Shown here piece by piece: positions 1-3,036 of a stretch of 31,762 nucleotides of DNA. Positions within the stretch are counted from its first letter, which is position 1; each line of letters opens with the position of its first letter. Both the position numbers and the translations under genes were made by a program. A model generated the notes under the pieces. It was not told the DNA's origin, did not search any database, and saw only the letters and a program-made list of their open reading frames with translations. Source of the stretch: Gemmatimonas sp. (GTDB lineage Bacteria > Gemmatimonadota > Gemmatimonadetes > Gemmatimonadales > Gemmatimonadaceae). The stretch lies in the NCBI GenBank assembly GCA_031414535.1, contig JANNVQ010000023.1:1-31762 (forward strand), in the 5' to 3' direction.

Positions 1-88
1 GGCCACTGCAGTCCTTCCATAAAGTGGAGCAGTGGCCCCACAACCGCTACCGGCCCTGCGCTTGTCGGCAGCAAGCGTCGTTAGCGAG
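1..88 (-). mobile_element. integron attC recombination site, 5' half (remainder outside the window)
   Basis: On the minus strand, 6 nt after the stop codon of 95..1198: CTCGCTAAC (R''-like), 5-nt spacer GACGC, then TTGCTGCCGAC (L''-like), and an apical hairpin GGCCACTGC...GCAGTGGCC (1-9 / 28-36). The R''-like box is the exact complement of GTTAGCGAG preceding the gene. Confidence 0.75.
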
Positions 89-94
89 CGTGCG

Positions 95-1198
95 CTAGCG
101 CTCGATGAGTCGTGGCTCAAGCACGCGGAGCGCAATCTCACCGTCCGCGCGCTCCTCGTACTGAACCAACTGCCCGTTGGGCAACACGTGAATTACCCCC
201 GCGGGCGCGACGGCCCGGGTCACCACACGACCAGTCTGCGCGTCCAACACCTCGAGCACGACTTCATAAAGATCCTGAAGTGCCAAGGAATTGCTCCGCA
301 CCTCACCGCCGCGTGCCGAGGATGCCCACGCCGCGCGCCAAGTGACGCTCGCACGGCGTACGTACGCCACGATCCGTTCATCGTCGCGCGCGACCACCGC
401 GGCCAAGAGCGGAGGCGGCGCGACCGTCGGAGACCCGCGCCACGCGGAGGAGCGCGATGCAAACCAACTCGGCTTGCGCAGCAGAGTGAATTCAGGCGTT
501 CCGCTCTCTGACCAACGCGTGATCCGATACTCGAGTGGGTCACCCGCCCATAGGGCACGGCGCGCACCCGTCGCGAGCACAGGAAGTACGCTGACATCTC
601 CACCACCGGCACGCGGATCGATAGGCTCAAGAAATGACGCCCGCACCGTTGGAGTACCGCCGGAGAAATCCACGATGTGCACCTGGCGCGCTCCGGCTCC
701 CGCGACACGCCCCGTCATTGCAACGTGTGTGGGCCATGCGAGGACCGTCGCGGACTGGAGTGCGCCCGGGAGCGTGAACTCTCTCGCCACGCGACCATCG
801 GCTGCGACGAGCATCGCGCGATAGGAACCAGCATCCAGCACCAACACCGAGTCCCCCGGCGTCGCTGCCAGTGCCGCTGCGCCCTCAAGCTCTCGTGGGC
901 CGCGGCCGAGTCGACCGAGGCGGACTTGAAATGCGCCATCGCTCCCGAACAAGGCAGCGAGCGCCGGATACTCGGCGAGCGCATATCGTCCGCTGGGGAG
1001 CGAGGTCGCGACTATCGGTATGCCCGCGAGTTCGGCACGCTCGACGTCGAGCACTGCAATCATACGGAACTCGATGCGGCACCCCGTGCACGACAGCGCA
1101 TCGGGAATGGTGACCGTCGCGGGCTGCGCAGTCAGCGCGGTCGTCGCGAGTCCGAGCGCTACAAGCGAATACAAAATGTGTGCACATTCACGATGCAT
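95..1198 (-). CDS. secreted 6-bladed beta-propeller (NHL-like) protein, carried as a gene cassette
   Basis: 367 aa ORF with a hydrophobic signal peptide, CTGC near the N-terminus, and the 'LGRLGRGPREL' and 'GDSVLVLD' motifs typical of NHL/6-bladed propellers. Confidence 0.7.
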   Translation of the reverse strand: MHRECAHILYSLVALGLATTALTAQPATVTIPDALSCTGCRIEFRMIAVLDVERAELAGIPIVATSLPSGRYALAEYPALAALFGSDGAFQVRLGRLGRGPRELEGAAALAATPGDSVLVLDAGSYRAMLVAADGRVAREFTLPGALQSATVLAWPTHVAMTGRVAGAGARQVHIVDFSGGTPTVRASFLEPIDPRAGGGDVSVLPVLATGARRALWAGDPLEYRITRWSESGTPEFTLLRKPSWFASRSSAWRGSPTVAPPPLLAAVVARDDERIVAYVRRASVTWRAAWASSARGGEVRSNSLALQDLYEVVLEVLDAQTGRVVTRAVAPAGVIHVLPNGQLVQYEERADGEIALRVLEPRLIER

Positions 1199-1201
1199 GC
1201 T

Positions 1202-1261
1202 TGTCTCGCTAACGTGTATTAGTCAAAATTTAAGCACCCACGAATACTTACTTTGCACCCA
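1202..1261 (-). mobile_element. cassette entry site (attI-like / dif-like) with two upstream direct repeats
   Basis: Minus strand ATTTTGACTAA-TACACG-TTAGCGAGACA (1229..1202) contains the G|TT core at 1213/1212. GCACCCA is repeated at 1234-1240 and 1255-1261. The region is locally AT-rich. Confidence 0.55.
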
Positions 1262-1346
1262 GTTCCAAAACCCCGCAACTCCCTCAAACAAAACACCTTA
1301 CCCCCGACCACCTCGCGAACGCATCACCGCGTTGTCTTGCGAGAAC

Positions 1347-1365
1347 GAGGCAGTAACACTGCCTC
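1347..1365. terminator. hairpin downstream of the MFS gene, possible terminator
   Basis: GAGGCAGT-AAC-ACTGCCTC perfect 8-bp stem; no clear U-tract. Confidence 0.35.
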
Positions 1366-1407: not shown

Positions 1408-3036
1408 CTAATCGATTTCCACCCCAACCGTCTCCGGTAACATCACCGCGCCAATCACAACCGTCACCGCCGCGATGATCACCGGATACCAGAGCCCCGC
1501 ATAAAAGTCCCCCGTCGCGGCGACAATCGCAAAAGCTGTCGTCGGCAAAAACCCGCCAAACCAGCCGTTGCCGATGTGGTAGGGCAGTGACATCGACGTG
1601 TACCGGATGCGTGTTGGAAAGAGCTCCACCAGCATCGCGGCAATCGGCCCGTACACCATCGTGACGAGGAGGACGAGCGCGGTCAGCACCACAATCACGC
1701 GCACCGTGCGCACCTGCGCGGGGTCTGCACCACGTGGATAGCCAACAGCATCGAGGGCCTCGGCAAGCTCTGAATCAAAGCGAGCCTTCGCGCTGTCCGC
1801 GCCGGCAGCGCCAGCATCGTACGAAGTGACGAGGCGCTCGCCAATCGTGATGGTCACGGCCTCACTCGACGCCGGCTCGTTGCTGTACGGAACTCCGCGT
1901 CGCACGAGCGCGGCCTTGGCAACGTCACAGGGCTTAGTGAACGTCGCGGTACCCACGGGATTGAACTGCACGGAGCAGCGGCTCGCGTCGGCGGCAACGA
2001 CAATCGGGGCGCGATCCACGGCGGCCGCCAATGCGGGATTCGCAGCCGCCGTCAGCGCGTGGAACAACGGGAAAATGGTCAGCGCGGCCAGCGCGCAACC
2101 ACCGAGGATCACAGGCTTCCGTCCAACCTTGTCGGACAGCCATCCAAACAGAACGAAGAATGGCGTGCCAATCAAAAGAGCGGCCGCCACCATGAGGTTC
2201 GCGTGCTGGGCCTCGACCTTGAGCGTCTGCGTCAAGAAGAACAAAGCGTAGAACTGGCCGGTGTACCACACGACGGCCTGGCCGGCTACAATGCCGAAGA
2301 GCGCGAGGAGCACGAGCCGGAGATTCGCCCACTGGCCAAAACTCTCGCGCAACGGCGACTTGGACTGCTTGCCCTCAGCCTTCATCTTCTTGAACATGGG
2401 CGACTCGTCGAGCGAGAGCCGAATCCAGGTGGAGATCCCGAGCAGAACCACCGAAAAGAGGAAAGGCAGTCTCCAGCCCCAAGCGTCGAATCGCTCCGTA
2501 CCCAACAGCACTCGGCAGCCAAGAATCACAAGCAATGAGAGAAAGAGGCCGAGCGTGGCAGTTGTCTGAATCCAGCCGGTGTAGAGGCCACGCTTCCCAG
2601 GCGGCGCGTGCTCAGCTACATAGGTGGCGGCGCCACCGTACTCACCGCCAAGCGCGAGGCCCTGAGCGAGACGCAACAACACGAGCATCACGGGCGCAGC
2701 AATGCCAATCTGGTTGTAGCTCGGCAGCACGCCCACAAGGAAGGTGGACGCACCCATCAAGACGATGGTGACGAGAAACGTATGCTTGCGACCCACGAGA
2801 TCGCCAAGGCGCCCAAAGAACACGGCGCCGAAAGGCCGCACGGCAAATCCTGCAGCGAATGCGAGCAGCGCAAAAATGAATCCGGCGGTCTCGTTCACCC
2901 CAGAGAAGAACTGCCGCGAGATGATAGCCGCGAGCGAGCCATAGAGGTAAAAGTCGTACCACTCAAAAACGGTGCCGAGTGAAGAGGCGAGAATGACGCG
3001 GCGGACGTCCTTCGTGGGAGCGATGGTCTCAATCAT
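1408..3036 (-). CDS. MFS transporter, MHS (metabolite:H+ symporter) family
   Basis: 542 aa; motifs 'ASSLGTVFEWYDF', 'GRLGDLVGRK', 'GGEYGGAATYVAE', 'ELFPTRIRYTSMSLPYH'; about 12 hydrophobic segments. Confidence 0.93.
   Translation of the reverse strand: MIETIAPTKDVRRVILASSLGTVFEWYDFYLYGSLAAIISRQFFSGVNETAGFIFALLAFAAGFAVRPFGAVFFGRLGDLVGRKHTFLVTIVLMGASTFLVGVLPSYNQIGIAAPVMLVLLRLAQGLALGGEYGGAATYVAEHAPPGKRGLYTGWIQTTATLGLFLSLLVILGCRVLLGTERFDAWGWRLPFLFSVVLLGISTWIRLSLDESPMFKKMKAEGKQSKSPLRESFGQWANLRLVLLALFGIVAGQAVVWYTGQFYALFFLTQTLKVEAQHANLMVAAALLIGTPFFVLFGWLSDKVGRKPVILGGCALAALTIFPLFHALTAAANPALAAAVDRAPIVVAADASRCSVQFNPVGTATFTKPCDVAKAALVRRGVPYSNEPASSEAVTITIGERLVTSYDAGAAGADSAKARFDSELAEALDAVGYPRGADPAQVRTVRVIVVLTALVLLVTMVYGPIAAMLVELFPTRIRYTSMSLPYHIGNGWFGGFLPTTAFAIVAATGDFYAGLWYPVIIAAVTVVIGAVMLPETVGVEID

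Follow-up and report, generated by a model that had tools for sequence, protein, structure and literature searches.

How does a gene with the anatomy of an integron cassette come to stand beside a sugar transporter gene, on a contig that carries no integrase, and what machinery could serve it there? The window analysed, 31,762 nt from Gemmatimonas sp., is the entire contig C23 of a genome of 58 contigs (hereafter G000), and the gene in question occupies its left end. A preliminary description had proposed an integron cassette without an adjacent integrase, either the first unit of an array or a single orphan cassette, and its coordinates all proved correct when re-read on the sequence. The answer that we consider probable, judging from the sequence comparisons set out below, is that this gene holds the first-cassette position at a satellite integron head, likely served in trans by the single, distant integrase of the genome. 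The architecture is more structured than was first proposed. The cassette itself is laid out as follows.

95..1198, minus strand: cassette open reading frame, 367 aa.
1205..1213, minus strand: cassette core site, with the crossover between G (1213) and TT.
1..88, minus strand: left part of the attC, with R'' at 86..80, a 5-nt spacer, the L'' region at 74..64 and the central hairpin at 36..1.

The core and the inverse core at 88..80 are an exact 9-bp complement (9/9) with the open reading frame between them; the ATG starts 14 nt after the core G, and the stop codon lies 6 nt before the inverse core. A cassette that enters as a circle ends up with a core matched to its own inverse core. Regarding the attC, its right arm lies past the end of the contig, and the remainder was compared with a covariance model for which 40 attC sites from G000 and two relatives were used, the window sites being excluded. 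The model, a comparison named beforehand as one by which the cassette reading might fail, matches positions 86..1 at 60.6 bits (E 1.5e-14, far above chance), with the left 87 of its 136 positions present and 49 lost at the 3' end to the contig edge. The closest complete copy of this attC, on contig C36, is 93% identical over 84 nt, and folding of a complete member of the family gives a long hairpin in which two bases bulge out (−48.1 kcal/mol, z −9.6). The hairpin reported earlier near position 21 is indeed present, and it corresponds to the attC's central hairpin rather than to the outer stem. Since the core match and the attC-model match are joined by the outcome of an IntI family search of the genome, which found nothing on C23, the description as an integron cassette without an adjacent integrase holds. 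Only one attC is visible on C23 before the contig ends, and an Rfam scan of positions 1–1500 returned four matches, every one far under the cut-offs. A generic attC heuristic yielded 364 candidates, most of them spurious, so a profile specific to this genome was made instead from 57 complete copies; this profile places 105 attC loci on 18 contigs of G000, a homogeneous set of roughly 95–145 bp.

Upstream of the cassette, between it and the transporter gene, stands a copy of an integron head.

1210..1358, minus strand: 149-bp duplicate of the integron head, the counterpart being C31:46560-46708 (92% identity).
1213..1245, minus strand: satellite copy of attI, an AT-rich block ending TAATACAC-G, with near-identical sites on C31 (beside intI) and C10.
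1250..1278, minus strand: predicted Pc, TTGCGG (1278..1273), 17 nt, CAAAGT (1255..1250).
1347..1365, minus strand: perfect 8-bp hairpin that straddles the upstream boundary of the head module (fold z −5.0).
1408..3036, minus strand: MFS sugar/acid transporter gene (Pfam Sugar_tr, E 8e-36).

The head copy (E 8e-57 against C31, with 12 of the 149 positions different) contains an integrase 3' tail, a promoter-like box and attI, and the identity between C31 and C23 ends within a few bases past the crossover. The tail, at 1354..1316, is a 13-codon match (E 0.04) to the non-conserved C-terminal end of IntI. By homology and position the C23 site is an attI, being a duplicate of the stretch that on C31 stands behind intI and in front of the first cassette. 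Because the cassette adjoins a copy of the promoter-attI head of an integron, the orphan-cassette option is weakened, while that of an array unit stands. The promoter was assessed with a relaxed pattern, derived post hoc from the very sites at which it was then counted, which occurs at 12 of the 16 sites next to an integrase gene and at 18 of the 25 satellites, versus 27 of 4000 background windows; a strict sigma-70 scan of the window detected no promoter.

The identification of the cassette's neighbour as an MFS transporter is confirmed by its Pfam match, and its stop lies 50 bp from the head module. This gene has counterparts in 50 of the 54 other genomes of the genus, and a comparison of relatives at this place, which the preliminary description had called for, found an attI-like motif or attC after it in none of the 29 (of 50) that could be examined. 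As the site is empty in all of them, the cassette gene is not fixed here in relatives. A metagenome scan with the attI consensus of G000 gave 0 matches.

The single integron integrase of G000 is encoded on C31 (413.7 bits against a TIGR02249 cut-off of 265) and is intact, without stops and with the catalytic R-K-H-R-H-Y motifs all present. Its gene points toward its own array, with attI behind the intI 3' end; at the C23 locus intI is not adjacent to attI, and only the 13-codon tail is left. Three attI copies exist in the genome, on C31, C23 and C10, the last of which heads another array. Since one intact IntI is present elsewhere in the genome, service in trans is plausible: the enzyme from C31 would bind the satellite attI and recombine it with a circular cassette's attC in its folded form, and the copied promoter would transcribe the first cassette or cassettes, so that each satellite would add an expressed front position. 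In a single integron, expression is confined to the first few cassettes. If the proposal is true, several heads would let the cell sample several cassettes at once and would split a large reservoir into separate arrays.

Other parts of G000 carry traces of array history. On C14 (G000:C14:322520-320016, minus strand) lies a decayed fourth head, with an attI-like motif and a core that, though mutated, has kept 8 of 10 bases in agreement with the next inverse core; it is followed by a cassette for a 556-aa P-loop ATPase, an intact attC, a second open reading frame and a broken attC. On C9 (G000:C9:29950-2681) an array is interrupted after an attC by an IS-like gene together with large genes that span about 27 kb, among them those for a KaiC-like ATPase, sensor kinases and a TonB-type receptor, and more attC remnants follow. 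Contig C31 terminates at G000:C31:48660-48835 in a perfect fold-back of an attC left arm, which arose artificially when the hairpin was assembled.

The arrangement recurs across the genus. Integrases above the cut-off are encoded in 34 of 55 genomes, some of which have two to three intI copies, and intI stands at several different loci; many of these integrases have the same attI ending behind intI. A 12-letter attI motif occurs at 41 sites in 22 of the 55 genomes (reversed-pattern control, 0), 16 of them behind intI and 25 not, the latter being called satellites here. Same-strand attC matches lie downstream of 20 of the 25 satellites; four of the remaining five have less than 500 bp of contig left, and one has no attC in 1.5 kb. 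Upstream of the satellites, no attC was found in the DNA compared around the 25 sites. At four loci (L016, L019, L023 and L024) a second, more distant IntI type, of about 50% identity, comes with a different attI ending.

Two near-closed relatives display the layout at genome scale. Each encodes one IntI; G070, in one contig, has three arrays with an attI head, and G017, in three contigs, has five, the heads lying hundreds of kb apart. Whole-genome attC searches gave 126 matches in G070 and 136 in G017, counts that include reverse-strand duplicates and come from 150 scored candidates of 3837 and 3716, respectively. The matches listed sit downstream of heads, with the exceptions of one weak stray and of two small array-piece contigs in G017. 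One satellite array of G070 has at least 23 attC matches in its first 19 kb. A sub-cluster of the same genome lies 44 kb beyond its array, behind an IS and a metal-resistance block, and its own attI head is absent. The block itself (44 kb, G070:C1:1293-1336 kb; L144, L145 and L108) is flanked by similar IS-like genes and splits a satellite array with genes for heavy-metal efflux, a copper oxidase and cytochromes. By the CALIN criterion, the satellites of both genomes count as CALINs.

When 14 further cluster starts (one in G070, the other 13 in five more genomes of the genus) were put to a relaxed test, only four had an attI-like head, and several of the headless starts are decayed, array-internal or close to contig ends. 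Outside the genus the motif did not exceed its control (6 matches in 241 genomes versus 13 for the control), a result uninformative on range because other lineages have other attI sequences.

Two kinds of evidence bear on whether the satellites are in use. First, the core of the first cassette is the complement of R'' at 7 of 7 bases in 19 of 21 scored sites, and in 14 of 16 when satellites are taken separately; here 24 distinct sites of the 41 were tried, and three had no attC motif within 4 kb. Shuffling gave a mean of 2.1 such sites and a maximum of 9 in 10,000. Second, over the 31 nt that precede the motif, the intI-adjacent attI of the satellite's own genome is the best of 16 in 14 of 17 cases, these being the satellites with a strict intI-adjacent site in their own genome (eight lacking one were omitted), a pattern among kin genomes and not an independent-sample test. 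Moreover, some satellite loci are common to several species, such as those on C10 of G000 and at 656k of G017, both behind the same peptidase gene. In six shared-locus pairs, which overlap, the own-genome score exceeds the orthologue score in 11 of 12 comparisons, and in the C10/656k pair the distal part tracks the orthologue, and the proximal part tracks the genome's own integrase. This suggests that satellite attI sites undergo concerted evolution, and for this reason the 92% identity of the C23 head need not mean a recent birth, even though the 29 relatives examined have an empty MFS site. The sites would be kept matched to the resident integrase by selection together with either gene conversion or attI x attI exchange; IntI1 recombines attI x attI at about 1.8e-4 (PMC7790495), and by analogy such recombination is a possible route for homogenisation. 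Between arrays, the parts compared (49 cassette bodies in G070 and 53 in G017) share no identical non-IS cassettes, only cassette families at 82–88% identity plus IS copies, and no cassette exchange was seen in them.

The competitor that survives best, though we think it unlikely, regards the satellites as frozen relics of whole integrons that were duplicated or re-acquired and then lost intI, so that promoter-attI heads persist without capture. Such relics should not show an attI that tracks the resident integrase at loci common to several species; also against them, an intI body is found upstream of 0 of the 25 satellites, and the satellite arrays are long, with intact attC sites. Loss of intI is nevertheless one of the listed origins of CALINs (Cury 2016; Ghaly 2021), and the presence of intI at several loci of the genus, in two to three copies in some genomes, agrees with it, as do the IntI tail retained by the window copy and the decayed head on C14, from which it follows that satellites do die. 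Also in line with relics, the contigs of a second sample have this same first cassette, and no alternative first cassette occurs among the contigs listed. An origin from whole integrons may hold even if the relics stay active.

That the duplicated head is an artefact of assembly or binning in a fragmented metagenome genome appears very improbable. The 58 contigs do break at attC repeats, and the copies share a 32-bp identical stretch at which a separate assembly, of run X1, also breaks, so that the pairing on the upstream side is ambiguous; but the copies differ at the 12 positions mentioned above, both are present in the run X1 assembly (which may represent the source sample) at equal depth (10.4 and 10.1), one contig there spans the module edge into the MFS gene, and the one-contig G070 and three-contig G017 have the same layout. 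Hardly credible at all is an off-target insertion at a genomic GWT site (attG) that would have produced a SALIN or CALIN with an incidental upstream likeness, for although attG insertion is efficient and requires only GWT (Loot preprint 10.1101/2022.09.11.507474) and all 29 of the 29 relatives examined have an empty MFS site, attG differs from attI by definition (same preprint), and the target on C23 is a copy of the attI head whose likeness to the intI-adjacent head runs for 149 bp and ends at the crossover.

If, then, the C23 gene is the first cassette of a satellite, the origin of the satellite head has to be considered. In four genomes the module begins shortly past the point where the conserved part of IntI ends, 146–173 bp before the crossover, and both G000 head copies carry GWT at the upstream edge. 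Among intI remnants sought upstream of the 25 satellites, only the 13-codon tail of the window (E 0.04) was found, three others being at E>=0.29. The edges, the GWT and the missing intI body together favour copying of the head alone, the GWT being weak evidence because it is a common word, and the occurrence of intI at several loci of the genus fits instead the relocation of whole integrons. The chances of head-only copying, possibly via IntI at the upstream GWT, and of whole-integron copying followed by intI loss are about even. In the former case, satellites would arise by copying a 150–190 bp head, possibly through IntI recombination at the edge GWT as a secondary site. A palindrome, TTATGC...GCATAA, is found at the upstream edge of many heads, about 150–190 bp before the attI site (e.g., G000:C10:2945-2915, minus strand), and in G003 a related 21–22 bp palindrome unit forms a tandem repeat on contig C13; it may be a binding site for IntI or for a regulator.

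Regarding orientation, all eight arrays of G070 and G017 point against the replication fork when the origin is placed at dnaA, an arrangement in which the lagging-strand template carries the attC bottom strand. The GC skew agrees with this origin in 9 of 10 windows of G070 and 7 of 10 of G017; for the G000 contigs it gave no orientation. G042 is a counter-example, for the two arrays examined there, which lie on the dnaA contig, have the reverse orientation. We regard the against-fork pattern as suggestive. The opposite orientation is reported for 25 of 30 sedentary integrons, and the against-fork one raises excision (Loot 2017, PMC5371416); the SCIs of Xanthomonas are known exceptions in replication orientation (10.1101/2025.06.18.660453).

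Integrase-less arrays (CALINs) are already known, and action or excision in trans has already been proposed for them in the CALIN literature. Their origins are given as intI loss, array splitting and off-target insertion (Cury 2016, PMC4889954; Ghaly 2021; Loot preprint 10.1101/2022.09.11.507474). Taken by itself, the C23 locus would be classed as a CALIN or SALIN, with which it shares attC cassettes and an intI that is not nearby but elsewhere in the genome; split CALINs, however, are described as cut off from Pc, whereas the satellites have their own attI and a predicted Pc. The integron on C31 resembles sedentary chromosomal integrons of the inverted-integrase group (Cury 2016), with one intI in the same direction as the cassettes and attI 3' of intI, but the cassette pool is here spread over three to five separately headed arrays, and the eight arrays of G070 and G017 run against the fork, unlike 25 of 30 sedentary integrons (PMC5371416). 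The CALINs of Xanthomonas (10.1101/2025.06.18.660453) are similar in having intI at one locus and further arrays at conserved loci common to species; that account, compared by its description of the arrays, makes no mention of an attI/promoter copy. Natural extra attI copies that are recombined by IntI1 do exist: class 1 and 2 mobile integrons contain duplicated and truncated attI in their delta-attI-type cassettes (PMC12901181), but there attI replaces attC within one array, whereas here whole heads start distant arrays. A literature search, with most subscription papers and supplements outside its coverage, returned no description of dispersed attI-headed satellite arrays.

These comparisons lead to a wider proposal, which we put forward tentatively and would not yet call the more probable view: many chromosomal integrons may be distributed, with one integrase and dispersed, copied promoter-attI heads that concerted evolution keeps matched to it, often in an excision-prone orientation, and some of the CALINs now regarded as relics would then be live platforms for insertion and expression. 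Such platforms could perhaps have been overlooked since their attI is not searchable; attI is unknown for most integrons and has been searched for only in classes 1–3 (Cury 2016, PMC4889954). Satellite heads make the abundance of integrase-less arrays a testable question, and the approach is a simple one: to take the attI of a lineage from behind its own intI and search the starts of CALINs for it.

It is the architecture that constitutes the finding, the cargo being ordinary. The 367-aa product is likely a secreted six-bladed beta-propeller of the DUF5128/NHL-like kind. The protein itself has no Pfam match, to PF17170 or otherwise, and the label comes from its homologues: it has 2579 relatives at E<=0.001; of 20 homologues scanned, 16 match DUF5128 at E<=0.01 and 5 exceed the Pfam cut-off; and a profile of a 134-sequence family matches NHL-repeat propellers in the PDB (best E 5e-36) over about residues 59–146 of the profile only. 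In the Atlas the protein is placed at 0.97 with DUF5128 clusters, mostly from Gemmatimonadota, and by its homologues the host is likely of this phylum. Apart from the missing Pfam match, it resembles DUF5128 (PF17170)/NHL propellers in its conserved GxGPGE blade motif, its length of about 370 aa, its hydrophobic N-terminus and its membership of a group common in Gemmatimonadota. Near 16 distant homologues, no attC-model match was found. A bias of propeller cassettes to array heads was considered and rejected: three of 92 cassettes qualified by motif, all at positions 1–2, a fourth was found mid-array on C9, and the bias is absent in G070 and G017.

Repeated elements also mark the arrays of the relatives. 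Many attC sites have their right arm interrupted by a transposase element of about 1.4 kb, IS110-family-like, which runs opposite to the cassettes, and its copies are 92–100% identical across arrays (L113, at G017:C1 near 778.5 kb, and others in G017 and G070); presumably it is akin to the IS1111-attC elements, which it resembles. Finally, short cassette families with bodies of 242 bp and 177 bp, 86–100% alike, repeat within and between the arrays L110 (G070, 3.12 Mb), L113 and L115 (G017), and these are possibly cassettes that have no open reading frame or a small one.
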